Made by a program: the position numbers and the translations under genes. Below are positions 2,593-29,159 of a DNA stretch of 64,000 bases, one piece after another; positions within the stretch are counted from its first letter, which is position 1; each line of letters opens with the position of its first letter. The stretch is from assembly GCA_037144355.1 (NCBI GenBank), contig JBAWWY010000007.1, forward strand, positions 1,083-65,082. The letters run 5' to 3'. The stretch comes from Eubacteriales bacterium (GTDB taxonomy: Bacteria > Bacillota > Clostridia > Peptostreptococcales > Anaerovoracaceae). The notes beneath the pieces were generated by a model, which did not search any database, was not told the origin of the DNA, and was given only the letters and a program-made list of their open reading frames with translations.

Positions 2593-4317
2593 CTAAATCT
2601 CAATAATATGTATACCACAATATTCATGTTTTATTAGCACAGCTTCTTCAAGTGGAATATTTTCCATGCTGCTTCTTATGACTGCCACTACACCGTTATG
2701 CGTAATAAGGATTATATCCTTGTCCTTATCTTGTTCCAACAATTGATTTAGTTTCTTCATGACGCGATATCGCAGATCAAAATAATTTTCTGCATTCTGG
2801 TCAATTTTGAAGCTGAGTAGATTCTGCCCCCGATTCTCATATTCGGATGGAAACTTTTCTTTAATCTTGCTAATAAATTTCCCATCCCAGCTACCTAGGC
2901 TGATTTCTCTAAAATCAGGTAGCGCTTCCAATTTCTGTTCCTGATTGGTAAATATTTTTTTGCTTATAATTTCTGCTGTCTGCATTGCTCGTTTAAGATC
3001 ACTACAATAGACTTTCGAAACTTTTGGATTGTAAAGAAGAAGTTTAAGTGCAGCTTCCTCAGCTTGCTCAATTCCTTGCGTACTTAAATCCAAATCAGTC
3101 TGCCCAAGAAATATTTTTTCTTTGTGCCTCTTGGTTTCGCCGTGACGAATAAGATAAAGCTTTCTATCATTATCGGGTTTCAATATTTTAGTTTTTTGTT
3201 CCCATATTTCTTGAATTTTTTTCCCAGTAACTTGATTAATGTGAATTTCAAGTTCTCTGGCTTTTTTATATCTTTCATTAACCTTTTCAAGAGCTTCAGA
3301 ATTGTCTTTAAATTTATGTAAAACTGGGGTTGCTCTATCCTTTAACGTAACTAGCTTATCCCCCCGCATCATCTTATCAGACAAGCATAAAACATCCTGC
3401 TCTGAAATTGTCTCTAGGTCGTCTTCCTTATCATAAGACATATGTTTTTCAACCAATTTTGCAACTTTATCGAAACCATATAGTCTGCAAATTAAAGCAC
3501 CTGCCTCTCCATGCCTGGGTCTATTACGGACTATGTCATGGAGAAGCGCGGCACTTCTAATGAGTGCTATGTTAAGATTGGCTCCGCTTTTGTTTAGCTC
3601 TTCTCCAATTTTGACTGCCAGGCTACCAACACAAATGCAATGTGCTTTAGCTTCAGCAGGCGTTTTGAATTTTTGCAGCATATATAAGCAATATTTTTCA
3701 TCCGGCGTCTGAGTTTTTTCCAAATGTCGTAAAAGTTCCTCGTAGTCGGATATTGTATCCATGTCCATGACGACTTCTTCAAATTCCAATTCCAACTTCA
3801 ATATTCTAGACTCATGCTTTATTGTAATATCTTTTAACCCATTTTTACCAGCATGATCAAGAATTTCTGGGATAAGATTCCTGGGTAATAGAGGAGGATG
3901 CCCTTTTTTTCCCATATAACATGGAACAATTATAGAATTTGGATTTTCTTCATATTTCTCAATCATCTCAAGAAATACTTGAGCTGGCACAAGTGGATAA
4001 TCAACTGGAAGAATGAAGAAGGCATCGATTTCTTCTCCAATTTCTGCTAACCCAGCCTTAATCGAGGTGAACATTCCCTCTTCATATAAATTATTATGGA
4101 CACTTCTAACTTTTTGCTCATGGATTATGGGTTCAAGAAGCTGGTTTTGATGGCCCGTTACCACAATAATATCATCAAGCTTGGAAAGTTTTGCGCTTCT
4201 AATAAGCCTTTTTAAAGCTGTCTCATCCCCGAACTTAAGTAAAGGTTTAAACTCACCCATTCGGGACGAGAATCCAGCAGCTAGAATAATTATCGCATAT
4301 TTTTTATTATTTCCCAT
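2593..4317 (-). CDS. Three-domain fusion: MobA/MocA-like NTP transferase + HD phosphohydrolase domain + histidine phosphatase (PGM/CobC-like)
   Basis: The N-terminus IIILAAGFSSRMGEFKPLL is the MobA-like nucleotidyltransferase signature. The middle region has ALLHDIVRNRPRHGEAGA (HD motif). The C-terminus has LYLIRHGET (RHG phosphohistidine motif) and LITHNGV. Ends in TAG. Confidence 0.75.
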   Translation of the reverse strand: MGNNKKYAIIILAAGFSSRMGEFKPLLKFGDETALKRLIRSAKLSKLDDIIVVTGHQNQLLEPIIHEQKVRSVHNNLYEEGMFTSIKAGLAEIGEEIDAFFILPVDYPLVPAQVFLEMIEKYEENPNSIIVPCYMGKKGHPPLLPRNLIPEILDHAGKNGLKDITIKHESRILKLELEFEEVVMDMDTISDYEELLRHLEKTQTPDEKYCLYMLQKFKTPAEAKAHCICVGSLAVKIGEELNKSGANLNIALIRSAALLHDIVRNRPRHGEAGALICRLYGFDKVAKLVEKHMSYDKEDDLETISEQDVLCLSDKMMRGDKLVTLKDRATPVLHKFKDNSEALEKVNERYKKARELEIHINQVTGKKIQEIWEQKTKILKPDNDRKLYLIRHGETKRHKEKIFLGQTDLDLSTQGIEQAEEAALKLLLYNPKVSKVYCSDLKRAMQTAEIISKKIFTNQEQKLEALPDFREISLGSWDGKFISKIKEKFPSEYENRGQNLLSFKIDQNAENYFDLRYRVMKKLNQLLEQDKDKDIILITHNGVVAVIRSSMENIPLEEAVLIKHEYCGIHIIEI

Positions 4318-4385
4318 TAAAGTCTTAGTCTCCCAAGCATCCGGTGGCCGGCATCAAATCCAAAGTTGAATAATTATATTTAAAG

Positions 4386-5204
4386 CTATTTAGAAAGTTC
4401 TGCTCTTATCATAATCATTTCAGCCACCACGCTAATAGCAATTTCCTCAGGTGTTTCTGCTAAGATATCCAATCCAATTGGTGCGTGCACTTTTACTAAA
4501 TCATTTTCTGTAAAACCATCAATTTTTAATTGGTCATATACAACCCCAATTTTTTTCCGGCTTCCAATCATTCCTATATACGAGGGTTGTTGTGCAAGCG
4601 CTTGTTTTAAAACATCATAATCTCCGCTGTGACCCCTGGTAACAATAATAATGTAGTTGTTTTCACCCGCTTGATAATTTTGGAAAGCATTCTGGAAATT
4701 ATCCAAGACTTCTATTTTATACGCCTCTGGAAATCTAACTGAATTTGCAAACTCAGGTCTATCATCAAGAATAACTGTTTTAAATCCCACATATTGGGCA
4801 ATTTTTGCTATTTCTTTTCCAACATGGCCCGCTCCATAAATATAGGCAACTGATTCCATGTCTAAATCCTCTTCGAAATTCTCTGGATTTAAATGGTCAA
4901 CATACTCTACGCTGACTTTTGCGTCACCGCCGCATCTCATGTCAATACCCTTTTGATCAGCAGGTGTTAGGCTGAATTCATGGGTTTTAGATTCTTTAGT
5001 CTTAAATGTGTCTTTGCAAATAGATTCTACTAGAGCTTCAAGTTTTCCTCCGCCGACAGTCCCAAAAGCTTTCCCTTCTTTGGTCATCAAGAGCCATGCT
5101 CCCTTTTTCCTTGGTGTTGAGCCAACGGTTTGTATAACTTTAGCTATTACGAAATCCTGTCCATTTTCAATTAAATCTCTGCCTATCTTAATAATTTCTC
5201 TCAT
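4386..5204 (-). CDS. XdhC/CoxI-family molybdenum-hydroxylase accessory protein
   Basis: 272 aa. An N-terminal XdhC_CoxI-like region (VIAKVIQTVGSTPRKKGA) is followed by a Rossmann region (IYGAGHVGKEIAKIAQYVGFKTVILDDRPEF), then IGSRKK and PIGLDI. Confidence 0.8.
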   Translation of the reverse strand: MREIIKIGRDLIENGQDFVIAKVIQTVGSTPRKKGAWLLMTKEGKAFGTVGGGKLEALVESICKDTFKTKESKTHEFSLTPADQKGIDMRCGGDAKVSVEYVDHLNPENFEEDLDMESVAYIYGAGHVGKEIAKIAQYVGFKTVILDDRPEFANSVRFPEAYKIEVLDNFQNAFQNYQAGENNYIIIVTRGHSGDYDVLKQALAQQPSYIGMIGSRKKIGVVYDQLKIDGFTENDLVKVHAPIGLDILAETPEEIAISVVAEMIMIRAELSK

Positions 5205-5259
5205 TTAAAATCTCCTTCTCTATATACGCTTAATTATTCTAACGACAAAACCGCATCTT

Positions 5260-6618
5260 CTAAATATTCTTATTCAATCTTTCCCTATGAAGGATATTAT
5301 AAGCACAAAATGGGATTAAACTACCACCTTTTATTGCAACATGCACCCGGCATTTTTGAAGTCTTTCCAGGTCAAGGTTCCATGCATCCTGAAATGCCAT
5401 AGCGGTAATGCTGAATCCATGGGTGTGCATTCTATTTAGAAATAAATCCCAGGAAGAAAAGTCGTATTCGCTGCTAGCCGCTTCAGATACTTCATTGTCT
5501 TCATAAGTCCACTTCCTAGCAATATAGTTTCTAGCTTTTTCTATGGATTCCTTTTGGCAACAACATGTTTTGTCACCCAAATTAGCCGATAACGAATTTA
5601 TGCTCCCATCTTCCATTAAAATGAAATTACCATGGAATGAACACATGGCATGTCCGGTGGCAAGAGGTATAAACTGGTTTGCGTTTAATTTACCATCTGA
5701 TTGTTCCACAAGTTTGGAAATCAACTTAGGTATAGTTATTCTGTCCTTGTCTTCAGGTTGTTTCGGATATCTACCAAAATAGCTCACAGGCTGGAAATGA
5801 ATGCCTCGAATATATGGCAGGCCATCTGTTGCGAATTTAAGTATATCCCCCAAATTATCGTCATTGATTTCTGGAACCACTGTCACAACTAGAACAACTC
5901 CAAGTTCTACATTGGAGCAATTTTCAATAGCTGTTTTCTTGATTTCAAGTAATTCCTTGCCTCTTATCTTTTCATAAATCGAATCTTCAGTCCCATCAAA
6001 CTGTAGAAATATCGAGGATAATCCTGCATCCTTTAGTTCTTTTGCATAAGATGGATCTTCTGAAATGCGGCGTCCATTTGTGTTTAATTGAATATATGGA
6101 AATCCCAAATCTTTGCCCATCATAATGATTTCTGGCAGGTCGTCACGCAAAGTAGGCTCGCCTCCTGACAACTGTATATTGAAAGGCCTTCCATCTGTCT
6201 TCTTAAGCAATTCTTCATAAATCGCTTTTATTTCTATTAAGGAAATGTCGCCTGTCTTCCCTTTAGAAGAGTGTGCGGATGCAAAGCAATACTTGCAATT
6301 TTGATCGCAATTCTGAGTAATTTCAATTAAGACACAGCATGCTTGTTGCAAGTGGTTTTCGCAAATTCCACAGTCATGAGGGCAGCGGCTTTTAGCTTCT
6401 GTATTTATAATAGAAGCTGTATCATTTTGCTCTTCACCTGACCAATTATCATAAGATAGTTTACTAATTGCTGCGCTTTCTTCTTCCCAAATAAGTGATT
6501 CAAAGCCTCCATGTTCCATGCAAACTTTTTCCAAATATATTTTATTCCTCTTTTGTTCACGTTTGGCAGGAATTGTTTTATAACATATTGGACAAATACT
6601 TCCTGTTATATTTTTCAT
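5260..6618 (-). CDS. Radical SAM enzyme with an N-terminal Cys-rich (zinc-ribbon-like) extension
   Basis: CxxxCxxC motif: ITQNCDQNCKYCFA. A SAM-binding region follows: IQLSGGEPTL. The N-terminus carries CPICYK...CMEHGG plus CPHDCGIC. Overlaps the upstream methyltransferase stop by 1 nt, consistent with translational coupling. Confidence 0.8.
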   Translation of the reverse strand: MKNITGSICPICYKTIPAKREQKRNKIYLEKVCMEHGGFESLIWEEESAAISKLSYDNWSGEEQNDTASIINTEAKSRCPHDCGICENHLQQACCVLIEITQNCDQNCKYCFASAHSSKGKTGDISLIEIKAIYEELLKKTDGRPFNIQLSGGEPTLRDDLPEIIMMGKDLGFPYIQLNTNGRRISEDPSYAKELKDAGLSSIFLQFDGTEDSIYEKIRGKELLEIKKTAIENCSNVELGVVLVVTVVPEINDDNLGDILKFATDGLPYIRGIHFQPVSYFGRYPKQPEDKDRITIPKLISKLVEQSDGKLNANQFIPLATGHAMCSFHGNFILMEDGSINSLSANLGDKTCCCQKESIEKARNYIARKWTYEDNEVSEAASSEYDFSSWDLFLNRMHTHGFSITAMAFQDAWNLDLERLQKCRVHVAIKGGSLIPFCAYNILHRERLNKNI

Positions 6619-7361
6619 TAATATCCCTCTATTTTTTTTTTAGCCGCTAAAAGAAAATAACCCAATTTGGCTTTGGACATATCATATGTATATTTTGATG
6701 AATCAATCCCATCAGGTAAAATGCTCTTCCAGAAATTCTCCATTGATCCACAATTCATTATGATTTCTGCTGTAAATTCTTTAAGTTCCTTTGTTCTATC
6801 TTCCCATTCGATAATATAATATCCTATATCTTCTATAACCTTTATCAGTTCTTCTTTTTCAAATGCTCCATTGATGCAACTTCCAATTGGAACAAAGCCC
6901 TCGCTCGATGTGCAATCTTGCGATTTGGTATCCCTTAAATAAAAATCGCTTATTACAAGTTTCCCGCCAACTTTGAGAACACGATAAGCTTCTAGTAATG
7001 CGTTGGATTGGTTGGGAAAAAGTGAAAGAGTACATTCCATCAATACGGCATCAAATGTAGTTGACGGGAAATCCAGCTGTCCACCCTCTCCTTTACGTAA
7101 GTCCAGTTCTGGATTGACTTTTCTACCATTTTCCAATATGGAATCGGAAAAATCAACGCCTATTCCATCTATACCAAAGTCTTTATTCAAATATTGAAGA
7201 GTTGAACCAATTCCACATCCAACGTCAAGTACTTTCATTCCTAGATTCAATTTAGCAAGCCTGACACCATCTTCTGTAATCTTAAATCCTCCAGGCCTCA
7301 TTATCCCCTTAGATAGTTCTTGGAAACCTTCATTCTCAAAAAGGTTGCATGTCTTTTCCAT
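6618..7361 (-). CDS. Class I SAM-dependent methyltransferase
   Basis: Motif I VLDVGCGIGST, then FDAVLMECTL and VLKVGGKLVISD. Confidence 0.8.
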   Translation of the reverse strand: MEKTCNLFENEGFQELSKGIMRPGGFKITEDGVRLAKLNLGMKVLDVGCGIGSTLQYLNKDFGIDGIGVDFSDSILENGRKVNPELDLRKGEGGQLDFPSTTFDAVLMECTLSLFPNQSNALLEAYRVLKVGGKLVISDFYLRDTKSQDCTSSEGFVPIGSCINGAFEKEELIKVIEDIGYYIIEWEDRTKELKEFTAEIIMNCGSMENFWKSILPDGIDSSKYTYDMSKAKLGYFLLAAKKKIEGY

Positions 7362-7388
7362 TAGTATTCCTCACAAAGCATATTTAGT

Positions 7389-8714
7389 TTACATATTTCT
7401 TTTATCTATTAAATTTCGTTTTCTAATTGCTTTAATATCCGGTTCCGCACATCCTTGCATGAATGTTTCAATATTCAAAGCGCCAGATCTTATATGATTT
7501 CCTATTATTGATTTTTTAATTGCCTCATAAATATTCCCACGAATAATTTCCTTATCTCCTATGGCATATACGCCTATTTTCAATGTTTCCCTGCCACAGT
7601 CCATAACAATTTCTGCCGTAAAATCTAAAATGCCTTTGATTGAGAAAATAATGTCCTCGAGCATGGGCATGGATATAGTTTGGCCATTTTTAAGCTTCAT
7701 CAAGGAGACAATTCTACTTTGTATCCTATCCATGGTTTTTAGAACAGTTCCACATCTGCATGGATCTAAAAGAAATCTGCTGATATCACCAGTCTTGTAC
7801 CTAATTAGGGGCATCCCTTTCCTTGTCAATGTTGTAAAAACAACTTCCCCATATTCGCCATCTTTGGCTGGTTGTCCAGTTTGTATGTCAATAATCTCAA
7901 ATAACATATCTGCATCTCTCATGTGGTATCCATTCAATGCTTCGCAGAAAACTCCTCCGCCCAAACCCATTTCAGTCATCCCGTAATGCTCATAAACCCT
8001 ACATCCCCAGCCTTTTATGATTATAGAAGTTATGGATGGTGAGACATAATCCGTACTTAGCAATACGCTTTTCAACTTTCCTGATTTCCTGATAGCATCC
8101 GATTTCTCTGATTTGGTTAAAGTGAATATTTGCTGTGGAATACCAACTATGCCTGTAATTTCCTGATTTATAATAATGTCCATGACTTTATCTACGTCGT
8201 CGACAATGCCATATATAACACCTTCAACATCCATTCTTGCAAGTCCTATTTTCAATAAATCGCCAATGCTTCCTGGTGTTTGCCCAGGCAAAAGAATGAG
8301 CACCTTGTCTCCAGGATATGTAAATGTGGACATTCCATGTCGGAAAAAATCTATTGTCAACTCCTGATCTTCTTTTGTAAAGTAAATCCTCTTGGGTTCA
8401 CCAGTCGTCCCTGAAGTATCCAAAGTGACAATACGATGAATATTTCCCTGCGCCACGCATACCATTCGACTTCCTTGCAACCTTATATCTTCAGAAGTTG
8501 TAAAAGGTATTTTGTATAAATCATCTCGGCTCTCAATTTTTGTTGAATCAAAATCATTAAGTAGATCCTTATAGAACGGGCTTCTTTCCTTAGCATAAGA
8601 TAAGATTCCTCGAAACGCCTCTATTTGATATTTTTCCAATTTTTCTTCGGTAAGCCGACATCCCCCATTTTGGATTTTAGTATTTATCCATTTTTCCATT
8701 GGTGTTATTATCAT
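7389..8714 (-). CDS. Adenylate-forming enzyme of the phenylacetate-CoA ligase (PaaK) / F390-synthetase type
   Basis: AMP-binding motif DTSGTTGEPKRIYFT, then YGMTEMG and the hinge YKTGDISR. Size (441 aa) and N-terminus are typical of the PaaK-like subgroup. Confidence 0.75.
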   Translation of the reverse strand: MIITPMEKWINTKIQNGGCRLTEEKLEKYQIEAFRGILSYAKERSPFYKDLLNDFDSTKIESRDDLYKIPFTTSEDIRLQGSRMVCVAQGNIHRIVTLDTSGTTGEPKRIYFTKEDQELTIDFFRHGMSTFTYPGDKVLILLPGQTPGSIGDLLKIGLARMDVEGVIYGIVDDVDKVMDIIINQEITGIVGIPQQIFTLTKSEKSDAIRKSGKLKSVLLSTDYVSPSITSIIIKGWGCRVYEHYGMTEMGLGGGVFCEALNGYHMRDADMLFEIIDIQTGQPAKDGEYGEVVFTTLTRKGMPLIRYKTGDISRFLLDPCRCGTVLKTMDRIQSRIVSLMKLKNGQTISMPMLEDIIFSIKGILDFTAEIVMDCGRETLKIGVYAIGDKEIIRGNIYEAIKKSIIGNHIRSGALNIETFMQGCAEPDIKAIRKRNLIDKRNM

Positions 8715-8716
8715 AT

Positions 8717-8926
8717 TTATTTATCTTCCAATGTCTTTTCAACTTCAGCCATTTTGCCAAGCGCCAAATCTTCTGGCACATAGACAAGTCCGCAGATGGG
8801 ACATTTCAAAAGTTCTGCAGGAAAAGTACTGGCTAGATAAGTTATATGAACTTTTCCTGGTTCCAGTAACACGTTGCATTTTGAACATATTAGTCCGTCT
8901 TCATTTTTTATTTCAGGCTGTTGCAT
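8717..8926 (-). CDS. Small zinc-ribbon protein (2 x CxxC)
   Basis: 69 aa with CSKC...CPIC. It sits 2 nt upstream of the ligase start and is co-oriented inside the operon. Confidence 0.55.
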   Translation of the reverse strand: MQQPEIKNEDGLICSKCNVLLEPGKVHITYLASTFPAELLKCPICGLVYVPEDLALGKMAEVEKTLEDK

Positions 8927-8939: not shown

Positions 8940-9212
8940 TTATTCTAAATCTAATCTATGACTATAGACATTGAAGATCTCAAATGTTAGATCTTTTTTA
9001 CCGTATTGAACCCAAAAGGTTGTATTACCTTCCTTAAAATGGGAAGTGAATCTATTGTTGGTTGGGTTGAATATTTTAAAATTAGTGCATTCTGCGAAAT
9101 GGATAACCTTTTGAATATCCGTTTCCAATATGCGCCTTTCTTCCATTGTTTTTTTAAGTTCTTCTGATATTGACAATACTATTTTCTGATAAACTTCTAT
9201 CTCTTCAACCAT
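8940..9212 (-). CDS. Small conserved protein homologous to the C-terminal domain of the 770-aa oxidoreductase at 11325-13637
   Basis: 90 aa. MEERRILETDIQKVIHFAE...FNPTNNRFTSHF...FWVQY...FEIFNVYSHRLDLE aligns with MEERLILDEDIQRVIEKAE...FNPKSGHFMASD...YWVEY...YEVFNAYSHRLKLIEE. Confidence 0.6.
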   Translation of the reverse strand: MVEEIEVYQKIVLSISEELKKTMEERRILETDIQKVIHFAECTNFKIFNPTNNRFTSHFKEGNTTFWVQYGKKDLTFEIFNVYSHRLDLE

Positions 9213-9230: not shown

Positions 9231-10382
9231 TCAAATACTAGCCTTTTGTCTGCTTAAGGTTTTAATTGCTTCAATCGTTTTTAAAATTTCATCCTCTGTA
9301 TTAAAATAACCAGGACTTAATCTAACTGTTCCAGATTCCAAAGTTCCAATGGTTTTGTGGGCCAATGGTGCGCAATGCAGTCCAGAACGCACATAAATAT
9401 CATATTCATCATCAAGCAAATAAGCCGTTTCAGAGGAATCCCTATCTTCTATGTTAAACGACAACACAGCCACTTGCTTGCGGCTATCGCAAGGTCCATA
9501 TAGAGTAACTCCTCTCACTTGCTTCAACTCATCAATCAAATATTGTGTTAGTCTCTTTTCATGCGCTCTAATCTTTTCCGAGGTTTCCGAAAAAATAAAT
9601 TCTATCCCAGCCCCTAGACCTACGATGCCCGGAGTGTTCAATGTCCCGCTTTCATATCGGTCCGGCAATATGAGCGGTTGGGTAATTTCTTCTGACTTGC
9701 TTCCTGTGCCGCCTTCTTTCAGAGTTCGTAATTCCAATCCTTCTTTAATATATAATATACCAGTCCCCTGAGGGCCTAAGAGTGACTTATGCCCTGGCGC
9801 AGCTAAGAAATCGCATGCCATTTCATTAACGTCGATATGGCAAATCCCTGCTGTTTGTGATGCATCAATCAAAAACAGCAAATTGTTTTTTCTACAAAGT
9901 TCTCCAATTTCCTTTAGTGGAAGAATTGTGCCAAGCACATTGGATGCATGAGTCATGGCAATCATTCGAGTGTTTGGGTTTATAGCCTTTTGAATGTCAT
10001 CCAAATTGATGGAACCTTCTGGGTTGCACTTGACTACGGATAATGAAATAGATTTTTCTGAAAGTCCTTTGAGTGGTCTAATGAGTGAATTATGCTCCAA
10101 GCTGGATACAATTACATGATCGCTAGGGTTTAATATCCCCTTTAAAGCCAGGTTCAATGAATCTGTCGCATTGCTGGTAAAAATAAGTTGCATTGGGTTT
10201 GAAATATTAAATAGTTTTGCAACAAGTTCTCTAGTTTTATAAATTTCTCTTCCAGCTTTTAATGAAAGCTTATGCCCCGATCTTCCAGGATTTGCAGCAT
10301 ACTCACGCATACATTCGTCAACTGCCTGATAGACCCTTTCGGGCTTTGGGAAGGTCGTTGCAGCATTATCTAGATAAATCAT
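9231..10382 (-). CDS. Class V aminotransferase-fold cysteine desulfurase / selenocysteine lyase family protein
   Basis: 383 aa. IYLDNAATTFP N-terminus, FLAAPGHKSLLGPQGTG (PLP lysine region), and RSGLHCAPLAH (active-site Cys loop). Confidence 0.85.
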   Translation of the reverse strand: MIYLDNAATTFPKPERVYQAVDECMREYAANPGRSGHKLSLKAGREIYKTRELVAKLFNISNPMQLIFTSNATDSLNLALKGILNPSDHVIVSSLEHNSLIRPLKGLSEKSISLSVVKCNPEGSINLDDIQKAINPNTRMIAMTHASNVLGTILPLKEIGELCRKNNLLFLIDASQTAGICHIDVNEMACDFLAAPGHKSLLGPQGTGILYIKEGLELRTLKEGGTGSKSEEITQPLILPDRYESGTLNTPGIVGLGAGIEFIFSETSEKIRAHEKRLTQYLIDELKQVRGVTLYGPCDSRKQVAVLSFNIEDRDSSETAYLLDDEYDIYVRSGLHCAPLAHKTIGTLESGTVRLSPGYFNTEDEILKTIEAIKTLSRQKASI

Positions 10383-10397: not shown

Positions 10398-10679
10398 TTA
10401 TTCGTTTTCTATTCCCAAATCAATTTTCTCAATTTCTCTTTTTCCATCCACTTTCTGATTGCTTAATCGATAAAATCCATAAGGCACCTTCATTGATTGA
10501 AGGAATTCCTTTATCGCTTTAAAATCCAACGAAAATATTTTAATAGACAAGCCACAGCTATTGGTAATCTCTCTAGGTGTTGGAATTGTGGCAATCCTAA
10601 AGTAATCCTTTATTCGTATCTCAGTTTGTATCGCATGGCTGGTTGAATCAAAGGATAGAACATAAAAAAAATCGTCCAT
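10398..10679 (-). CDS. DUF3343-type small protein (putative S/Se carrier partner)
   Basis: 93 aa: FDSTSHAIQTEIRIKD...ATIPTPREITNSCGLSIKI. This is the pattern typical of DUF3343, and the gene is positioned between the desulfurase and YedF. Confidence 0.6.
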   Translation of the reverse strand: MDDFFYVLSFDSTSHAIQTEIRIKDYFRIATIPTPREITNSCGLSIKIFSLDFKAIKEFLQSMKVPYGFYRLSNQKVDGKREIEKIDLGIENE

Positions 10680-10697: not shown

Positions 10698-11276
10698 TTA
10701 TATTTTAATTGAATTACTTGCATTGTTTAGTTTTTCCACTATAGAGTACATATTAGATACTGAACCAATAATCAATTTATCGGTCAAACCGTAAAAATTC
10801 AAGCAGGCTCCACAAGTTAATATTTCTATACCATCGGCTTCCAATGTTCTTAGACTTTCTTCCACGACAGAACCCTCAACTGTGAAAAATACGCCACTAT
10901 TGATAAAAATCAATGTCTTAGGTCTAGGTGTCACTTCTGTAATTGCATACAGGTAACTTTTCATGAGGCTTTCTCCCAGCTCTTTTGCGCCTTGCCCAAA
11001 CGTATCTGTGCTGACAAGAATTACTAAACTGCCTTCTTTCTCAAAAGCTTCAATATCTTTCTCCTTTTGAATTGTAACTTTGTATAAATTCTTATCCTGG
11101 ATATTACTAACAGTATATCCAAGGCTTTCGGCAAAATTGGTCAGATTTTTAAGAGCAATATCATTGTCTACAATAGTTGTAACTGTACCTTCCGTCATTG
11201 TGTCCAATAATCTCTTTGTTTCTATAATTGGTTTTGGGCATTCCCATCCTTGCGCATTGATAATTTGTTCCATCAT
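10698..11276 (-). CDS. yedF: YedF-type protein: TusA/SirA-like N-domain fused to a DsrE-like C-domain (selenium/sulfur metabolism protein YedF family)
   Basis: 192 aa. The N-terminus GWECPKPIIETKRLL carries the CPxP motif of TusA-like proteins. The C-terminal half resembles DsrE (ILTCGACLNFYGL). Confidence 0.75.
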   Translation of the reverse strand: MMEQIINAQGWECPKPIIETKRLLDTMTEGTVTTIVDNDIALKNLTNFAESLGYTVSNIQDKNLYKVTIQKEKDIEAFEKEGSLVILVSTDTFGQGAKELGESLMKSYLYAITEVTPRPKTLIFINSGVFFTVEGSVVEESLRTLEADGIEILTCGACLNFYGLTDKLIIGSVSNMYSIVEKLNNASNSIKI

Positions 11277-11324
11277 TTTACCTCCTGATTAAGAAATAAC
11301 CATTTAAAGCTTACGAATAAGCAA

Positions 11325-13637
11325 CTACTCTTCAATCAACTTTAACCGATGAGAGTAAGCATTAAAAACCTCATACCTATCATCTGTTATTATATATTCT
11401 ACCCAGTAAGTTATCAAATCATGTTTGTCGCTAGCCATAAAATGTCCACTTTTGGGATTGAAAGTTTTATTCCCTGTTCTCTCAGCTTTTTCAATGACCC
11501 TTTGAATATCTTCATCTAAAATCAAACGCTCTTCCATGTCATCAATGACCTGTTTATTTAAGTTAATTTTAATATTATAATAATTATTGTCCAACTCAAT
11601 ATATTTTTCATCCCAAAGAGTGGAAAGCAATTCCTTTTTCAACCTTATTCTATTTATTCTTTTTTGAGAAATTGGTTCAGGTATTTTTGTTGAAAATACC
11701 TCTGTGTCGTTTCCATAAATTATATCTAAGATATGGTGGGTCGGCTTGTTTTTTAATGTGAAATAATTCTTGCACATAATACAATATGCTACATAATCCC
11801 TTTTGCTTTCGCTTATTCTTCCCTTTACTATGGTCTCTGTCAATTTCTTGTTTCCATAAAATATTAATCCACCATAACCGCAACATTTGGTCTTATCTTT
11901 GCTATATTTCAACTCTTCAATGGAATACCCAGTTTTCTCCAAAATACTTCTTACGCTTTTCTGCATTTTGGGCTCATGTCTAGCGGTGCATGAATCATGA
12001 ATAGAAATGATTTTCCCTTTATTACGCTCAACATCCGGTAAACCAAATTTGTCATACAACTCCCAGATTGAAATCAGATTCATTTCCGGGATTTCTTCTT
12101 TAAATTCCTTATGGCAGGTCGAGCAGGCGGTAATAATCGTAGGCTTTCCCATTGCATCCCATTCTTTCCTGAATTGAGCCATTACCCCCTTGTATGTATC
12201 TTTTCGGCCAGCCCAATCGGCGGGTGCTCCGCAACATCCCAACTTTATTCCAACGCCACCTTCAAGATTAGCTATTAGATATTCATACATAGGTTGAATG
12301 TAAAATGGAGTAGTTGCTCCCAGCTGACAACCTGGGAAAAACAGATAACTACTTTCAGTTTTACCTGGTTGATGCTTGCAAAGCGAAGCTGCTTCGCTAT
12401 TGCTAAAATCCATATCCTTGATTGGGAAATCATGTATGGTTAATGGCATGCTGTTGTCTTTGATCATATTTTGTCTTGCAGCCTTATTGATCTCTCCCAT
12501 ATTCAAGCCATTTGGGCAAAGTTCTTTGCAAAGTCCACATAAAGAACACGAGTTTATTAAATCTTTTGCAGTACGCAATCCAATTCCCCTAGTAGATAAA
12601 TTATTAAATATTTCTCGAATATATTTTCTTGGAAATTTTTCAAAAGATTCTAAATAAATGCATTCTTTGACGCATTCCATACACCTGCAGATAATACATC
12701 TTCCTGCTTCTTCCAAGGCTTCTTCCTTGGTATATCCTTCTATCTCATTTGATGGAAAGATTGGATTCTTCTTTTGGATTCCCTCAATGCTGGTAAATAA
12801 CTTTGTATCTAAATTGCCTTCGGCAACTCTGCTTGCAGTTAAAGAAACGCTTTTAAGGAAACGGTCTATAGACGTAGCTGCCTTTTTGCCTTCAACCATT
12901 TTAAAAACGATTGGATTCTCTAATTGAGCGGCAATATCGATTCGACTCACAAATACCTTTTCATTGGATGTTTGGAGAGTTTCTTCTATTACCTTGATGT
13001 GATTTTTTTTATCCTGCTCAAGATCAGATCCATTGATAAATTTATTTGCACTAATATATATGGCATCATATTCACTATAAAGTTCTATAAAGGAAATGTC
13101 TTTTCCCACTTCTTTGCCAAGTTTGATCTCTATTTCCAAATCGGATAAAAACCTGAAATCATTTTCCAAATCGCCTTTTGTTAATACTTTTGAATGATAT
13201 AGGCCTCCACCGAGATTGTTTTCTCTTTCATAAATTGTAACTTTAAAACCTTTTTCATATAAGCTGACCGCTGCGGAAAGTCCATCCACTCCAGCTCCAA
13301 TTATTGCAACTTTCTTATTGAGTTTCATAAAAGGTTCAATTTTATGAACAATATGTCCATAAGTTGCAACAGCATTTTCAATTTGAGGTATCATTAACGA
13401 TTGATCTACTTCTATGCGCTTGCAGAAATTCATACATGGAGCCGTGCACGTTTTAGAAACGATAATAGGAAAATATATGTTTTTGTATAAAACATCTGCG
13501 GCTTCTTCATAATTATTTTTTTGCACCCATCCCATCATACTTCGCACATCTAATCTCAGCGGACAAGCCGCAGTACAAAATGGAGCATGTTCTTCTATGC
13601 AATCTTTTTCTTTTGCTAATATTTCTCTTGTGTCCAT
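11325..13637 (-). CDS. Chimeric Fe-S flavoprotein: GltD-like N-terminus + FAD/NAD(P) Rossmann + 2x[4Fe-4S] ferredoxin + HdrD/GlpC-like CCG domains + C-terminal small domain
   Basis: 770 aa. Motifs in order: FCTAACPLRLD..CTAPCMNFC; VAIIGAGVDGLSAA..YERENNLGGG; CIICRCMECVKEC and CSLCGLCKELCPNG; cysteine-rich CCG-type repeats (FPGCQLG..CCGAP; HDSCTARH..KCCGYGG). The last ~85 aa are homologous to ORF 8940-9212. Confidence 0.7.
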   Translation of the reverse strand: MDTREILAKEKDCIEEHAPFCTAACPLRLDVRSMMGWVQKNNYEEAADVLYKNIYFPIIVSKTCTAPCMNFCKRIEVDQSLMIPQIENAVATYGHIVHKIEPFMKLNKKVAIIGAGVDGLSAAVSLYEKGFKVTIYERENNLGGGLYHSKVLTKGDLENDFRFLSDLEIEIKLGKEVGKDISFIELYSEYDAIYISANKFINGSDLEQDKKNHIKVIEETLQTSNEKVFVSRIDIAAQLENPIVFKMVEGKKAATSIDRFLKSVSLTASRVAEGNLDTKLFTSIEGIQKKNPIFPSNEIEGYTKEEALEEAGRCIICRCMECVKECIYLESFEKFPRKYIREIFNNLSTRGIGLRTAKDLINSCSLCGLCKELCPNGLNMGEINKAARQNMIKDNSMPLTIHDFPIKDMDFSNSEAASLCKHQPGKTESSYLFFPGCQLGATTPFYIQPMYEYLIANLEGGVGIKLGCCGAPADWAGRKDTYKGVMAQFRKEWDAMGKPTIITACSTCHKEFKEEIPEMNLISIWELYDKFGLPDVERNKGKIISIHDSCTARHEPKMQKSVRSILEKTGYSIEELKYSKDKTKCCGYGGLIFYGNKKLTETIVKGRISESKRDYVAYCIMCKNYFTLKNKPTHHILDIIYGNDTEVFSTKIPEPISQKRINRIRLKKELLSTLWDEKYIELDNNYYNIKINLNKQVIDDMEERLILDEDIQRVIEKAERTGNKTFNPKSGHFMASDKHDLITYWVEYIITDDRYEVFNAYSHRLKLIEE

Positions 13638-13671
13638 TGGAAGTCATTCCCCTCTGCATACCTATATGGGG

Positions 13672-13700
13672 AAAAAGAGGGCAATCTCAGCCCTCTTTTT
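13672..13700 (-). terminator. Hairpin with flanking A/T runs between the oxidoreductase structural gene and the accessory operon
   Basis: AAAAAGAGGGC-7 nt-GCCCTCTTTTT. It lies 29 nt downstream of the stop at 13729 and 35 nt upstream of the start at 13637. Confidence 0.6.
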
Positions 13701-13728
13701 CCCAGTATTTATAGGTAATATAATGATC

Positions 13729-16485
13729 TTATTTAGGCATTGCTGCCAATACTTTTTCTGGAAGAATCGGTAAATCTCTAACTCTTGCACCGCAAGCATC
13801 TGCGATTGCATTGGCAATTGCTGCATGAGGGCTGCAATGAACAACCTCGCCAATACCGGATGAACCGAATTTGCTATGTGGTCTTGGTGTTTCAAGATAG
13901 ATTAATTCGATGTCATCAGGAACATCAGCGATAAAAGGTATTCCGCATTTCATAAGCGTATTATGTTTTGTTAGATCCTCAAAATCCTCGCTTAACGCTA
14001 AGCCGATTGATTGCGCTAATCCGCCATAAGCCTGTCCATCAACAACAGTTTTGTTCCCTATCTTGCCTACATCGTAAACTCCAGTTGCTTTAACAACTTT
14101 AACTTTACCTGTTTTAACATCCACTTCAGCTTCAGTTACGAACGCGCCATACATGAATGCCACATAAGGATTGAATTGACCTGTCTTTTCATCAATTGTA
14201 GTACAAAGCGGCGTACTGGAATAATTGCCAGTGTAATAAGTATCAATATTTTCCGCTTTCATTTCTTCTAATGTTCTAAATGATCCATCTGCTTTTTTCA
14301 TAGCCTTGATTAAGTTTTCGCAAGCATCTCCTATTGCATTTCCTACAAACAATTGGCTTCTACTTCCAGCTGCAGGACCACTGTCAGGGCATTTTGCCAT
14401 ATCATTCAGTACAAGTTTGATGTCTTCTGGCTTGATTTTCAACTCTCTTAATGCTTCATGAGAAGTTGATAATGCTCCCATATCTCCACCCTGGCCATGA
14501 TCTTCCCAAGTTGTATATATTGCTACTTTGCCGTCGCCGATTAATTCACATGCCGCTGTTGATTCATCAACTGTATCATTTCCAACACAGTAAATCCCAA
14601 GAGCGACACCAACGCCTCGTCTTTTTTCAGGTGTGTCAAACTTTGCTTTTCTTTCTAATGCTTCCTTATATTTAGGCCTTAAGATGTCGAAAATCTGTTT
14701 TAGAACATAAACATCTGGAGCGCTTCCTGTAGGTGTAGTGGACCCTTTTTCAGGATCATACAAGTTGTTATATCTGAACTCAAAAGGATCTTGACCGAAT
14801 TTTCTAGCCAATTCATCTATGGCGCTTTCACCTGCGAGAAAACTTTGAGGTGAACCATAAGCTCTCATTGGTGCTCCATAGCAATGATTTGTAAATGTCA
14901 TTTTTCCTAATGCTCTGATATTGTCAAGATGGTACCCTGCTCCAATGAACTGATTTCCCTTAGTTAGGAGCAAATCAGAAAATTCAGAGTAAGCGCCATG
15001 ATCTGCAAGGAAATTTGATTCCATTCCAAGCAATTTTCCATCTTTGTCACATCCCATTTTAAGCTTCATAAAGAATGGTGAACGTTTTCCAGTATAAGTA
15101 ATAGACTGAGCCATATCCATTTCCAAATAACAAGGTTTGCCAGTTGCCATTACAGCAATCCCGATATATTGTTCGATTGTATTGCAAAGCTTATATCCGA
15201 ATGTTCCGCCAGCGTTATTTTGGATGTATCTGAACTTCTCTGGGTCTATTCCAAGAGCGTCTACAATCATAACTGAATTCAAGTAAATTCCAACTGACTT
15301 TGAACAAATAGTTAAACGTTCTTCTTCGTCCCAATATCCATATGCTACATCTGGCTCTAAGAAAAGATGTGGCTGTCTTTGCACATAATATTCTTCTTCA
15401 ATAACGGCTGCTGCCTTGTCAAATAAAGTTTTTGGATCTACTCCCTTTATTGTTGCCTGTTCAAAGTGAATATTAGGTGTGCCAGGGTGAATTTCTAATG
15501 CATCAGGTGCCGCTGCAGCTTTTGCATTCATGTAGGCTGGCAATTCTTCAACTTTAACTACAACTTTGTCTGCTGCCGCTCTTGCATGTTCCTCAGTGTC
15601 AGCACAGACAATCGCCATTACATCCCCAAATTGAAATATTTTTTCGTCACAAAGAAGTGGTCTATCAAAACCATCTCCCTTATTCCATGGATAAGTTACA
15701 AATCCATTTACACGATTTGTCCCCTTAACATCTTTTGCAGTTAACACAGCTTCCACGCCAGGCATTTTTTCTGCTTCAGCGAAATCAATTGAAAGAATAT
15801 TCGCATGTGAAACTTTGGCTTGAACTAGTGCTAGTTTTAGGACTCCTTCAGGTAATTTTGTTCCTGTATCCGCGCCGTAGTCAAAAGTACCTGTTACTTT
15901 TGCTATTCCGGATGGACGTGGATAATCAGTTCCATAAATTCTGCCATCAGCAGGCATTTTGAACTGTAATTCCTCAATTTTCATTTCGCCGCGCATTACT
16001 TTTGCAGCTGCCATTACTGCATCAACGATTGGTTTATAACCAGTACATCGACAAACATTTCTGTTTTTTTGGAACCAGTCTCTAACTTGTTCTCTTGTTG
16101 GATTACTATTTTGATCTAATAGGTTTTTTGCTGCCACAATAAATCCTGGCGTACATATACCACATTGTGCTGCTCCATGTTTTACCCAGGCAGCTTGCAA
16201 TGGATGAAGATTGTCAGGATTTCCAACACCTTCAATAGTAGTAATTGTAGCTCCATCAGCAACCTTGTTCATTTTAACCAGGCATGCTCTTACAACCTTG
16301 CCATCTAAAATAACTGAGCAAATACCACATTGATTGACACGACATCCAACTTTTGTTCCAGTCATTCCCAATTGTTTTCTAATAACATCAACCAGGATTT
16401 CCTCTCCAGTAACTAGCACGGTTCTTATACTGCCATTTACCATCAAGTCTTTTCTCTTGTAGATTTTCTTTGCATTTTCAGACAT
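13729..16485 (-). CDS. Molybdopterin-dependent aldehyde oxidoreductase / molybdenum hydroxylase, single-polypeptide Mop type (2x[2Fe-2S] + Mo-pterin domains, no FAD domain)
   Basis: 918 aa. The N-terminus has GCRVNQCGICSV and CGICTPGFIV (two 2Fe-2S sites). A long a/b-hammerhead and Mo-binding region follows. The C-terminal SSGIGEVV contains the conserved catalytic Glu context. Size and architecture match the D. gigas aldehyde oxidoreductase type. Confidence 0.85.
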   Translation of the reverse strand: MSENAKKIYKRKDLMVNGSIRTVLVTGEEILVDVIRKQLGMTGTKVGCRVNQCGICSVILDGKVVRACLVKMNKVADGATITTIEGVGNPDNLHPLQAAWVKHGAAQCGICTPGFIVAAKNLLDQNSNPTREQVRDWFQKNRNVCRCTGYKPIVDAVMAAAKVMRGEMKIEELQFKMPADGRIYGTDYPRPSGIAKVTGTFDYGADTGTKLPEGVLKLALVQAKVSHANILSIDFAEAEKMPGVEAVLTAKDVKGTNRVNGFVTYPWNKGDGFDRPLLCDEKIFQFGDVMAIVCADTEEHARAAADKVVVKVEELPAYMNAKAAAAPDALEIHPGTPNIHFEQATIKGVDPKTLFDKAAAVIEEEYYVQRQPHLFLEPDVAYGYWDEEERLTICSKSVGIYLNSVMIVDALGIDPEKFRYIQNNAGGTFGYKLCNTIEQYIGIAVMATGKPCYLEMDMAQSITYTGKRSPFFMKLKMGCDKDGKLLGMESNFLADHGAYSEFSDLLLTKGNQFIGAGYHLDNIRALGKMTFTNHCYGAPMRAYGSPQSFLAGESAIDELARKFGQDPFEFRYNNLYDPEKGSTTPTGSAPDVYVLKQIFDILRPKYKEALERKAKFDTPEKRRGVGVALGIYCVGNDTVDESTAACELIGDGKVAIYTTWEDHGQGGDMGALSTSHEALRELKIKPEDIKLVLNDMAKCPDSGPAAGSRSQLFVGNAIGDACENLIKAMKKADGSFRTLEEMKAENIDTYYTGNYSSTPLCTTIDEKTGQFNPYVAFMYGAFVTEAEVDVKTGKVKVVKATGVYDVGKIGNKTVVDGQAYGGLAQSIGLALSEDFEDLTKHNTLMKCGIPFIADVPDDIELIYLETPRPHSKFGSSGIGEVVHCSPHAAIANAIADACGARVRDLPILPEKVLAAMPK

Positions 16486-16598
16486 AAATAAACCTCCTTC
16501 AGAAACAATATAATGTAAAGCATTGAATAATATTTCTTGTTCAATTATTTAAATAGCTTCTACCCATTGGGTAGGTGCTAAAAAAAACTTTTTATTTG

Positions 16599-17639
16599 TT
16601 AATAGCCAAAGCTGCAATCCGGATATGTGCAGTTTTCGCACGCAAGACACATTCCACCGTAGGCAAGTTTAGTGATATCTTCCCTTGTAATCTTTTCACC
16701 TGAAAGTATTCTTGGTATAACCAAATCAAATACACTCGCTTTATGATACATGACACATCCAGGTAATCCAACTACAGGAATATCTCCGATTTCAGCAAGC
16801 ATAAACATGGCGCCAGGCAATACTGGAGCACCATAGGTGATTACCTTTCCACCAGCGGCTCTGATTCCAGAAGGCGAGAGATCGTCTGGGTCTACTGACA
16901 TCCCACCAGTTACAGCTATCATATCCGCACCTTTGCCAAGCAAATCATGAACCGCTTTTACAATTTCCTCAATTGAATCAGGCACAAATATTTGCTGCAT
17001 TATATGGCTTCCAAGTGCTTCAAATTTTGTTTTCAATATAGGCCCAAATTGATCCTTTATTCTTCCGTGATATATTTCACTGCCAGTTGTAATGACTCCA
17101 ACCTGGAAACTTTTAAAAGGTTTGACCTCAATTATTGGATCATTACCACCGCACAACTCTTCAATCTGTCTTAAAAAATGGTCTTCAATAACTAATGGTA
17201 CAATTCGTGCTCCAGCGACTTGTTTCCCCTTTTGCACAAACCTATTTCCCTTAATTGTTGACAAAACAATCTGATCTATTGCATTGACTTCGAATAATCT
17301 TTCTACATTGATTTTAAGCAATCCTTCTATGGCCGCTGTTATTACTACCTTGCCCTCGTTTGGTTCAGTAAATTCAACACCACTTCCTGATGCAGCCATT
17401 GCAATTTGCATGGCAGCTTCATTTTCATGAGTATAACCATTCTGCAAATCCCAAACATAAATATTTTCTTTCCCAATATCAAGCAGCTTGGCAATATCCT
17501 CGCTCTTAATAATATGTCCTTTTTTAAAAAGTCTTCCCTTGAATTCTCCAGGAACAATTTTCGTTATATCGTGGCAGAGGGTCATTCCAACTGCATCTCT
17601 AACATTTACACATTCCAATTTTTCACCTTCATCATTCAA
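16599..17639 (-). CDS. Molybdopterin-binding protein (MoeA-like N/linker region + MoCF-biosynthesis domain) with a Cys-rich C-terminus
   Basis: 346 aa. VGVITTGSEI..., AVTGGMSVDPDDLSP (MoaB/MogA/MoeA-type domain), and C-terminal CLACENCTYPDC. Confidence 0.7.
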   Translation of the reverse strand: MNDEGEKLECVNVRDAVGMTLCHDITKIVPGEFKGRLFKKGHIIKSEDIAKLLDIGKENIYVWDLQNGYTHENEAAMQIAMAASGSGVEFTEPNEGKVVITAAIEGLLKINVERLFEVNAIDQIVLSTIKGNRFVQKGKQVAGARIVPLVIEDHFLRQIEELCGGNDPIIEVKPFKSFQVGVITTGSEIYHGRIKDQFGPILKTKFEALGSHIMQQIFVPDSIEEIVKAVHDLLGKGADMIAVTGGMSVDPDDLSPSGIRAAGGKVITYGAPVLPGAMFMLAEIGDIPVVGLPGCVMYHKASVFDLVIPRILSGEKITREDITKLAYGGMCLACENCTYPDCSFGY

Positions 17640-29158: not shown

Positions 29159-29159
29159 C

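Follow-up and report, generated by a model that had tools for sequence, protein, structure and literature searches.

A Mop-type aldehyde oxidoreductase locus of a Eubacteriales bacterium as a variant of the TrsS/DVU_1551-1557 cassette, with a possible role in the maturation of pterin enzymes

The stretch of contig JBAWWY010000007.1 of a Eubacteriales bacterium that was analysed here (64,000 nt, hereafter the window) carries thirteen co-directional open reading frames (ORFs) on the minus strand, running from 17639 down to 2593, which include the gene for a Mop-type aldehyde oxidoreductase (AOR) predicted to carry the molybdopterin cytosine dinucleotide (MCD) cofactor. Judged by its family scores and gene order, the locus is not a new kind of system but a variant form of a cassette for which bioinformatic models already exist in NCBIfam. 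We propose that the cassette is built from three modules, namely a cofactor supply, an enzyme-specific partner and a shared sulfur/S-adenosylmethionine (SAM) kernel that would serve the maturation of pterin enzymes. We give this three-module model a probability of about 0.45, that is, somewhat below even odds.

All thirteen ORFs, which had been predicted in an earlier reading of the sequence made without database searches (the sequence-only reading), were confirmed on the minus strand at their positions (Table 1). They are closely packed. The spacers measure 113 nt between the gene of the MoCF_biosynth-domain (MoCF) protein and that of the AOR, 91 nt between AOR and the Fe-S flavoprotein PNDR-CCG, and then 48, 18, 15, 18, 13, 2 and 27 nt; at the distal end the methyltransferase (MTase) and TrsS genes overlap by 1 nt, followed by spacers of 55 and 68 nt. 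The same locus was found on several metagenome contigs. The accessory-gene search and the NCBIfam, Pfam, Rfam and tRNA scans covered the window; NCBIfam hidden Markov model (HMM) scores are given as bits/curated cut-off, and Pfam served as a second domain library. Seven ORFs exceeded the NCBIfam cut-offs, those of the AOR, DVU_1551, DVU_1553, DVU_1556, DVU_1557, TrsS and diclust_near_Sec families. The families named after DVU_1551 to DVU_1557, which the sequence-only reading had named as candidates, do exist, and the corresponding ORFs score above their cut-offs. Its domain calls were all reproduced by Pfam and NCBIfam, except that the label MoeA-like for the first ORF was wrong: this protein has the MoCF_biosynth domain alone, together with a conserved C-terminal CxxCxxCxxxxC motif, and its identity as MoeA was rejected.

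Table 1. Features of the AOR locus in the window, in order of transcription, with the share of full-flank comparison loci (genome and metagenome) in which each gene was detected; the last row is a cassette gene missing from the window
Feature	Position	Strand	Family evidence (bits/cut-off)	Genome loci	Metagenome loci
MoCF_biosynth-domain protein, C-terminal CxxCxxCxxxxC	16599..17639	-	Pfam PF00994 only	12/48	9/22
Mop-type molybdopterin (MCD) AOR, 918 aa	13729..16485	-	NF045668 1467.3/1100	42/48	21/22
Hairpin, 14-bp, G+C-rich, in the 91-nt spacer between AOR and accessory genes	13669..13703	.			
PNDR-CCG Fe-S flavoprotein, 770 aa	11325..13637	-	NF045663 (diclust_near_Sec) 921.3/530	44/48	21/22
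YedF (TusA + DsrE-like), thiol-based S/Se carrier	10698..11276	-	TIGR03527 198/110	0/48	0/22
DUF3343 / Se_S_carrier	10398..10679	-	Pfam PF11823	0/48	0/22
Class-V pyridoxal phosphate (PLP) cysteine desulfurase, EF2568 family	9231..10382	-	TIGR01977 508.7/377	6/48	5/22
p90, free-standing paralogue of the PNDR-CCG C-terminal domain	8940..9212	-	NF045663 model positions 673-757		
DUF7479 (DVU_1557 family), 69 aa, 4-Cys zinc ribbon	8717..8926	-	NF045645 95.5/60	47/48	21/22
DVU_1553-family AMP-forming PaaK-like ANL ligase	7389..8714	-	NF045666 457/300	46/48	22/22
DVU_1556-family class I SAM methyltransferase (MTase), ArsM-like	6618..7361	-	NF045667 202.3/155	42/48	21/22
Radical SAM protein TrsS, Cys form	5260..6618	-	NF045646 579.5/490		
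XdhC-family molybdenum cofactor (Moco) chaperone, short form, 272 aa	4386..5204	-	Pfam XdhC_CoxI + XdhC_C	29/48	13/22
DVU_1551-family MocA-like NTP transferase + HD + CobC-like histidine phosphatase fusion	2593..4317	-	NF045665 381.7/315, residues 8-364	27/48	14/22
C_GCAxxG_C_C				46/48	22/22

The conservation of the cassette was examined from two sides. A genome scan with the TrsS alignment as query, one genome per species, gave at least 588 confirmed relatives, and the best 80 of them, which were used as loci, belong to at least seven phyla (Bacillota, Chloroflexota, Desulfobacterota, Nitrospirota, Spirochaetota, Acidobacteriota and Actinomycetota). With the metagenomes included, the comparison set comprised 160 independent loci, whose genes were detected by tblastn with the window proteins, and prevalence was counted in the 70 of them whose flanks were complete, 48 from genomes and 22 from metagenomes. 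The recurrent order was [MoCF]-AOR-PNDR-CCG-DUF7479-MTase-C_GCAxxG_C_C-TrsS-ligase-XdhC-NTP/HD-histidine phosphatase; the synteny recurs in the 160 independent loci, and the arrangement is far beyond chance. Seen from the TrsS side, 63 of the 70 loci have an AOR. Seen from the AOR side, in a sample of four loci, PNDR-CCG, DUF7479, MTase and C_GCAxxG_C_C were present in all four, and TrsS with a gene at the ligase position in three. Because both samplings agree, the neighbourhood can be called conserved next to Mop-type enzymes, as the sequence-only reading had supposed. Its description as a conserved but biochemically undescribed system is right in that the system is uncharacterised and goes too far in calling it undescribed, the families and their neighbourhood (NF045645, NF045646 and NF045663-NF045668) being already catalogued in NCBIfam. 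We found no biochemical study of the cassette, and full-text searches for DVU_1551-1557 came back empty; the papers that mention DVU1559/DVU1558 are, by title and abstract, omics or biofilm studies.

The window differs from the NCBIfam cassette in several respects: the C_GCAxxG_C_C gene is missing, a block is inserted, the ligase precedes the MTase, the NTP transferase-HD protein is fused to the histidine phosphatase, the XdhC scores below its cut-off, and TrsS is of the Cys form, not the selenocysteine (Sec) form. The inserted block, YedF - DUF3343 - EF2568-type desulfurase - p90, lies between PNDR-CCG and DUF7479. The eleven accessory genes had been taken as one operon unit; this view has to be given up, as the block is a rare lineage-specific insertion (its first three genes occur in 0/70, 0/70 and 11/70 loci), and DUF3343 was found in none of the 160 comparison loci. 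The C_GCAxxG_C_C gene (~150 aa, PF09719), which is present in 116 of the 124 complete cassettes that form the denominator for this gene, gave no tblastn match anywhere in the window, where the overlapping MTase and TrsS genes leave no gap between them. YedF was seen only in cassettes without C_GCAxxG_C_C, namely those of the window and of loci L094 and L069; the count is 0/116 with against 2/9 without (Fisher p = 0.005; few lineages), L069 being a further case. Among the cultured relatives examined, the nearest is Acetobacterium bakii, whose cassette contains the standard C_GCAxxG_C_C gene, lacks the inserted block and shares with the window the short XdhC and the NTP transferase-HD-phosphatase fusion. 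From this distribution, YedF, DUF3343 and the desulfurase appear to be a non-orthologous displacement of C_GCAxxG_C_C. As the YedF block stands in its place, it suggests that C_GCAxxG_C_C is a thiol-based sulfur/selenium or redox carrier.

The AOR is a single chain with the Pfam domains Fer2_2, Ald_Xan_dh_C, MoCoBD_1 and MoCoBD_2, that is, two [2Fe-2S] clusters and Mo-binding domains and no FAD domain. Its residues 12-916 align with residues 4-905 of the Desulfovibrio gigas enzyme (1SIJ/1VLB) at 1146 bits, and the D. desulfuricans enzyme (1DGJ) gave 1152 bits. By these alignments the AOR is an end-to-end orthologue of the two crystallised enzymes (MOP), with the same architecture; there, the enzyme alone was studied. 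From the orthology and the adjacent MocA-like gene we infer that the AOR carries the MCD cofactor. The MoCF protein scored 60.6 bits with the NCBIfam molyb_syn domain (cut-off 85), its four C-terminal Cys are kept in 13/13 homologues, and the homologues found within the flanks of other loci mostly lie directly upstream of the AOR. The XdhC gave 324.4 bits with NF045664 (XdhC_rel_AOR, 346 positions), just under the cut-off of 350, and 139 bits with TIGR02964. In the NTP transferase fusion (Pfam NTP_transf_3 + HD + His_Phos_1), the MocA model reached 155 bits (cut-off 186) and the alpha-ribazole phosphatase model 128 bits over residues 387-572; in most loci the histidine phosphatase is a separate, adjacent and conserved gene.

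The first module, which we consider well founded, would consist of the MoCF protein, the MocA-like NTP transferase-HD-phosphatase and XdhC, and these would synthesise MCD, keep it bound for sulfuration and place it in the AOR. In the Rhodobacter paradigm, XdhC holds Moco during its sulfuration by a NifS-type desulfurase, and MocA makes MCD (PMC2997495). A desulfurase, where present, would likewise sulfurate the XdhC-bound Moco. In the window, the operon ends with the homologues of XdhC and MocA and has a desulfurase within it, as do 11/70 other cassettes. Canonical maturation of this kind proceeds without a radical SAM enzyme, a methyltransferase, an ANL ligase, an HD domain or a histidine phosphatase.

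The second group of genes behaves differently. PNDR-CCG (Pfam Fer4_20, NAD_binding_8, Fer4_17 and two CCG domains) is laid out as a GltD/NfnB-like part with 2x[4Fe-4S] and an FAD Rossmann domain, a ferredoxin dicluster, two HdrD-type CCG domains and a C-terminal domain of ~90 aa, and its similarity to PDB entries was limited to the NfnB/GltD-type modules at residues 12-200. The free-standing p90 is 43% identical to the C-terminus of the window's own PNDR-CCG and is located directly upstream of DUF7479, as the C-terminal domain of PNDR-CCG always is. A set of W, Y, Y, H and R residues is invariant in p90; a profile search against PDB sequences gave no match, and the homologue search recovered p90 only. 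DUF7479 has two Cys knuckles, of which the second is the rubredoxin-like CPxCG, and ends in a tail of the form ...LALGKMxEVEKxLE[D/E]K, with the terminal Lys invariant in 67/67 and 60/60 sequences. Its fusion partners are PNDR-CCG (in proteins of 806-915 aa), CCG-only proteins (449-693 aa) and p90-like domains (137-181 aa), and since it is the last domain in every fusion examined, its C-terminus is always free. As read from these sequences, the invariant free LE[D/E]K tail is a detail that is new here. None of the known terminal motifs of carrier proteins (EDWGE, GG or the lipoyl-Lys hairpin, of the LysW, MoaD/ThiS and lipoyl types) is present in it.

The structure predictions for this part of the cassette were made with AlphaFold2. 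The model of one p90-DUF7479 fusion was a compact unit (pLDDT 89.7, pTM 0.83), and DUF7479 was modelled as a ribbon with a C-terminal helix of lower confidence. A Foldseek search of the DUF7479 fold against PDB gave nothing significant, the best match being the zinc-finger protein ZifS (E = 0.095). A likeness of the p90-DUF7479 model to RelE/HigB-type proteins was non-significant (Foldseek E ~0.2, TM <0.5) and was rejected. An apparent DUF7479-MTase fusion in L087 was also rejected; it came from an over-extended gene call, and DUF7479 is a separate 70-aa ORF there that ends in LEDK.

Copy number separates two groups of genes within the cassette. Locus L089 contains three PNDR-CCG genes, of which two are preceded by an AOR and two are followed by DUF7479 within the stretch examined, together with one MTase, one C_GCAxxG_C_C, one ligase and one TrsS, and L016 contains two sets and one TrsS. 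Aklujkar et al. (2017) reported that Clostridium ljungdahlii has two tandem AOR/PNDR-CCG/4-Cys/C_GCAxxG_C_C sets, for which a redox function was proposed; the first set was induced on syngas and/or H2-CO2 (PMC5640608). Because PNDR-CCG and DUF7479 are multiplied with the AOR copies, and because DUF7479 is fused to PNDR-CCG and to p90 and is modelled with p90 as a compact unit, we suggest that PNDR-CCG, p90 and DUF7479 form an enzyme-specific partner. The zinc ribbon had been grouped with the maturation enzymes; it multiplies with each AOR, as PNDR-CCG does, and both behave as per-enzyme partners rather than as maturases. TrsS, MTase and the ligase behave as shared catalysts that could serve several enzymes. 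The second module, moderately founded in our view, would therefore be a PNDR-CCG + p90 + DUF7479 unit stoichiometric with each AOR copy, and electrons leaving Mo would travel via the two [2Fe-2S] clusters into the Fe-S/FAD part of PNDR-CCG and on to its CCG site, which would act on a thiol, disulfide or persulfide species. A second AOR paralogue, of 928 aa, followed by a DsrC-like protein and a class-V desulfurase, was observed directly upstream of the standard AOR cassette in L087 (5009-9328), and the group resembles an alternative set of sulfur-relay partners for an enzyme of the Mop type.

TrsS is related to the radical SAM enzyme Tes (GDGT-MAS), the tetraether lipid synthase. It scored 366 bits with the Tes model NF045702 (cut-off 450), over model positions 2-318 of 486 only, and 296 bits with the GDGT-MAS structure 7TOL over residues 3-320 and 394-449. 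Both proteins share a rubredoxin-like ribbon, the radical SAM core and a C-terminal cluster-binding segment, whereas TrsS residues ~320-394, with a Cys-Cys(-Cys) motif, are not alignable to the ~110-residue middle segment of Tes that is taken as its lipid-binding part. The genomic context also differs, being a pterin enzyme for TrsS and lipid synthesis for Tes. Fourteen cysteines of TrsS are invariant in 81/81 sequences, the cluster cysteines are all retained, and the N-terminal zinc ribbon of TrsS and Tes is Pfam PF23545, named after a proposed pterin methylase. In a table of selenoprotein families, TrsS is entered with an attribution to Haft & Tolstoy 2025 (PMC13188914).

For the MTase, the ArsM models were next best (76-79 bits against cut-offs of 240-263). 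Its C110 (67/67) and C162 (49/67) align with the cysteines of the ArsM motifs NCVINL and GECLAGA, which we take to be the As(III)-binding pair; these two are shared with ArsM (5EVJ, 4FR0), and the N-terminal cysteines of ArsM are lacking. The ligase scored 97 bits with the PaaK model TIGR02155 (cut-off 646), and its closest structure is the PaaK entry 4R1L (116 bits). Its residues C257, C319 and C321 were considered as a special feature and rejected, as they are general cysteines of the PaaK family. The MTase and TrsS occur as natural fusions (P0027 and P0064). TrsS was also observed with a C-terminal fusion to the Cys-rich DUF5714, in proteins of 690-725 aa (P0040, P0046, P0057, P0066, P0088, L010 9980-12157 and L089 10001-12082), within an AOR cassette in L089 and alone in L010; a homology of DUF5714 with C_GCAxxG_C_C was rejected (hhalign probability 1%).

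The surroundings of these three enzymes are not limited to the AOR. In L050 (Thermincola) and L166, p90-DUF7479, C_GCAxxG_C_C, MTase, TrsS and ligase stand behind a bis-molybdopterin guanine dinucleotide (bis-MGD) molybdopterin oxidoreductase, and neither a Mop AOR nor a full-length PNDR-CCG was detected in the stretches examined; in L050, a W-type aldehyde ferredoxin oxidoreductase (AFOR) also lies just upstream. TrsS follows another bis-MGD enzyme in L095, the cassette follows modABC in L092, and in C. ragsdalei (L011) a lone TrsS lies beside a CobW-type GTPase, an HD protein and a ModA-type binding protein. Because the kernel adjoins other pterin enzymes and Mo-uptake genes, we suggest that TrsS and its companions are tied to the biogenesis of Mo/W-pterin enzymes and not to one substrate pathway. 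As a separate observation, the window has modABC genes with a divergent helix-turn-helix (HTH) + TOBE/Mop-domain regulator at 28064-31691, ~10 kb upstream of the AOR operon, and an HTH + TOBE/Mop-type regulator with a ModA-type protein, or full modABC, directly flanks the cassette in A. bakii (L091), L092 and L104.

In the third module of the proposed model, TrsS with its auxiliary clusters, the MTase, the ligase, a thiol-based carrier, p90 and DUF7479 would form the shared kernel. The carrier would normally be C_GCAxxG_C_C and, in the window, YedF and DUF3343 with their own desulfurase. Sulfur (possibly selenium) chemistry that depends on ATP and SAM may be carried out by the kernel on an intermediate bound to a protein, and the LEDK tail of DUF7479 would be the best candidate site for it. 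Either the product or its sulfur would then be put to use for the molybdo- or tungstopterin enzyme, with the species on the carrier being processed by the CCG reductase. The sulfur role is hinted at by the desulfurases in 11/70 cassettes, by a rhodanese that precedes the cassette in L054, by the restriction of YedF to cassettes without C_GCAxxG_C_C, and by the cysteines of an ArsM-type thiolate site in the MTase. In the model as a whole, the family memberships, gene order, fusions and copy-number pattern are observed; the path of the electrons, the role of the carrier and the sulfur chemistry are inferred.

Several points weigh against this three-module model. The structures of the D. gigas and D. 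desulfuricans AORs, determined at high resolution on enzyme from the native source, show ordinary, unmodified MCD, and the D. gigas AOR has been reported to be active without the sulfido ligand; for these reasons an essential extra ligand is not evident. TrsS and ligase are absent nearby at the AOR locus L088, and no other cassette gene was found within the 10-kb flanks of TrsS in C. ragsdalei. The examples associated with bis-MGD enzymes come from few lineages, and the anticorrelation of YedF and C_GCAxxG_C_C is based on three loci. Cys and Gly-Gly are both absent from the DUF7479 tail, which could be a helix for docking and nothing more, and the four cysteines of this protein could simply be Zn/Fe ligands for electron transfer.

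A covalent modification of the pterin, or the installation of a modified labile S/Se ligand on Mo, by the kernel and the zinc ribbon was the explanation favoured in the sequence-only reading, and it would give a non-canonical cofactor in vivo. This would agree with the co-operonic position of the cassette with XdhC and MocA homologues, the occurrence of TrsS with other pterin enzymes and Mo-uptake genes, the thiolate-bound substrate site of the ArsM-like MTase, the pterin-methylase name of the ribbon PF23545 in Tes and TrsS, and the S/Se-trafficking genes inserted in the window. However, because the orthologous Desulfovibrio enzymes from native sources have the ordinary MCD, a covalently modified pterin is unlikely, although a labile ligand may have been lost on purification. 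Such a modification would also leave unexplained why DUF7479 and p90 are in every kernel with an invariant free tail, and why PNDR-CCG multiplies with each AOR copy. We consider this explanation as a whole unlikely.

A bolder reading, which we think quite unlikely, is that DUF7479 is a new type of carrier whose free LEDK end is activated or acylated by the PaaK-like ligase. The terminal carboxylate would become a thio- or seleno-carboxylate, or the terminal Lys would bear a prosthetic group of the swinging-arm kind; TrsS and MTase would tailor the attachment with S/Se, the sulfur coming from C_GCAxxG_C_C or here from YedF/DUF3343/desulfurase, and the HdrD-type CCG reductase, normally fused to the p90 docking domain, would process the carrier-bound species. 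If this were true, the Mop AOR would have a hitherto undescribed protein-bound cofactor, either as a working partner or as a factor in its maturation. For the three-module model, the nearest functional parallel is the lipoate-binding protein (LbpA) module of Hdr-like sulfur oxidation (PMC6067878, PMC10332631), by analogy only and with no homology; both systems combine an Hdr/CCG Fe-S flavoenzyme, a small protein with a critical Lys, an ATP-dependent ligase and one or more radical SAM enzymes. The cassette is unlike that module in having an ANL and not an LplA ligase, a Tes-like and not a LipA-like radical SAM enzyme, and a zinc ribbon with a C-terminal Lys in place of a lipoyl domain. Sulfur carriers of the TusA/DsrE type are also found in the sulfur-oxidising Hdr-like system.

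It can also be argued that PNDR-CCG, DUF7479 and C_GCAxxG_C_C are simply the acceptor chain of the AOR, with DUF7479 as a rubredoxin-like protein that has a docking helix for a tail, and that TrsS, MTase and ligase are unrelated and merely co-located. The four-gene redox set that is duplicated and co-induced in C. ljungdahlii (PMC5640608) would fit with this, as would the CPxCG knuckle of DUF7479, its fusions to CCG proteins, and the redox set without TrsS or ligase in L088. Yet the synteny of the AOR with TrsS, ligase and MTase is no looser than with the redox set (42-46/48 and 21-22/22), the MTase-TrsS fusions link those two enzymes, and p90-DUF7479 and C_GCAxxG_C_C stay with TrsS, MTase and ligase where the AOR and full-length PNDR-CCG are absent (L050, L166). 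Pure electron transfer is quite improbable as an account of the whole cassette.

That the AOR is one step of a metabolic pathway, in which for example the ligase activates the acid product of the AOR and TrsS and MTase tailor the substrate, seems very unlikely to us. The ligase is PaaK-like, and the core genes are linked to the AOR more tightly than XdhC or MocA, which is typical of pathway genes. On the other hand, the conserved part of the cassette includes neither a transporter nor a regulator nor any additional catabolic enzyme, the cassette is found again beside other kinds of pterin enzyme and beside Mo-uptake genes, and the duplication of PNDR-CCG/DUF7479 with each AOR beside single-copy catalysts fits better with a split into partner and maturase.

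The inserted block carries markers of selenium trafficking, as YedF passes TIGR03527 and is accompanied by DUF3343 and an EF2568-type lyase, and the TrsS and C_GCAxxG_C_C families have selenoprotein members elsewhere; the trio would handle sulfur equally well. It was reported that only the co-occurrence of SelD, YqeB and YqeC is a reliable marker of the selenium-dependent hydroxylase trait, YedF and DUF3343 being only predicted selenium markers (PMC9312934). No selD, yqeB, yqeC, selA, selB or tRNA-Sec was detected in the window by ORF HMM and RNA scans. No in-frame TGA was aligned to Cys in the cassette proteins of the best 80 genome-scan loci, and two stops inside TrsS matches look like errors because they are aligned to Gly and Ser. 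Because the AOR fails the selenium-dependent hydroxylase model TIGR03311 (Se_dep_XDH; 432.6 bits, cut-off 830.45), the desulfurase fails the SclA selenocysteine-lyase model (361 bits, cut-off 525), the selenium genes are absent from the window and the insertion is nearly absent elsewhere, the selenium link drawn in the sequence-only reading is weak, and the delivery of Se by this block to an AOR with a labile Se ligand in this lineage is highly improbable.

Some further features surround the operon. The hairpin in the spacer behind the AOR gene (Table 1) is not followed by a U-tract on the coding (minus) strand, and it may act as a stabiliser or partial attenuator that sets the AOR:accessory stoichiometry. 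No Moco riboswitch was found in the window by Rfam at gathering thresholds. A T-box leader (96.3 bits) at 1710-1981 (-), upstream of the 3-deoxy-D-arabino-heptulosonate 7-phosphate (DAHP) synthase gene (602-1618), marks the downstream boundary of the AOR operon region. On the upstream side, a small Nitro_FeMo-Co (NifX/NafY-like) protein is encoded at 19415-19807 (-) behind a perfect sigma-70 consensus (TTGACA-18-TATAAT, 19909-19880 (-)), and its gene is followed by an FMN-reductase-like gene, an acyl-CoA dehydratase-type activase and the AOR operon. Four loci have homologues of this protein in their flanks (L012, L031, L062 and L145), in two cases directly beside TrsS (L062 and L145), and a Pfam match lies near TrsS in L089; it may be an occasional component of the cassette.

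A possible sigma-54 operon at 21032-23958 (-), with the -24/-12-like site TGGCATAAATTTTGCA at 23958-23943, encodes a CD3072-family TudS-related desulfidase, a CD3073-family energy-coupling factor (ECF) S component, a double-cubane-cluster reductase and a DsrE-like protein, which make up a further sulfur-handling set next to the AOR region. Upstream of it are an amidohydrolase and a PrdR/DhaR-like sigma-54 activator (24133-27521). A paralogous amidohydrolase and sigma-54 activator pair is found at 52360-59076 (-), and upstream of that pair are an Fe-alcohol dehydrogenase and an amino-acid/ethanolamine-type permease, behind a -24/-12-like site at 59076-59061.

The rest of the window contains mtbB (dimethylamine:corrinoid methyltransferase, TIGR02368) at 47126-48580 (-), split into two ORFs, with an Rfam PYLIS_2 element at the junction (47407-47506, 62.4 bits, gathering score 36); UAG is probably read as pyrrolysine in this organism. 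A gas-vesicle cluster at 38641-43503 (-), with GvpN (TIGR02640, 342 bits), a GvpF-like protein, a CDC48-type AAA ATPase and Hsp20, is unusual for a metagenome-assembled genome of an anaerobic Eubacteriales. Between the gas-vesicle and methylamine regions there is an ISNCY-family transposase-like ORF at 45205-46410 (+), which scored 121.9 bits with NF033594 (cut-off 250).

The AOR of the D. gigas type has been the structural model of the xanthine-oxidase family for about thirty years, and the cassette adjoins this textbook enzyme, whose partner, role and maturation it may illuminate. A Tes-like TrsS, an ArsM-like MTase, an ANL ligase, a CCG reductase and a protein with a free C-terminus are combined in it, and none of these fits canonical Moco biology. 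The window offers a natural experiment, with YedF, DUF3343 and a desulfurase where C_GCAxxG_C_C is missing, and this points to S/Se trafficking as the function of the C_GCAxxG_C_C component. Once the chemistry of the cassette is worked out, it would give either a new step in the maturation of Mo/W enzymes, or a new protein-bound cofactor together with a redox partner.

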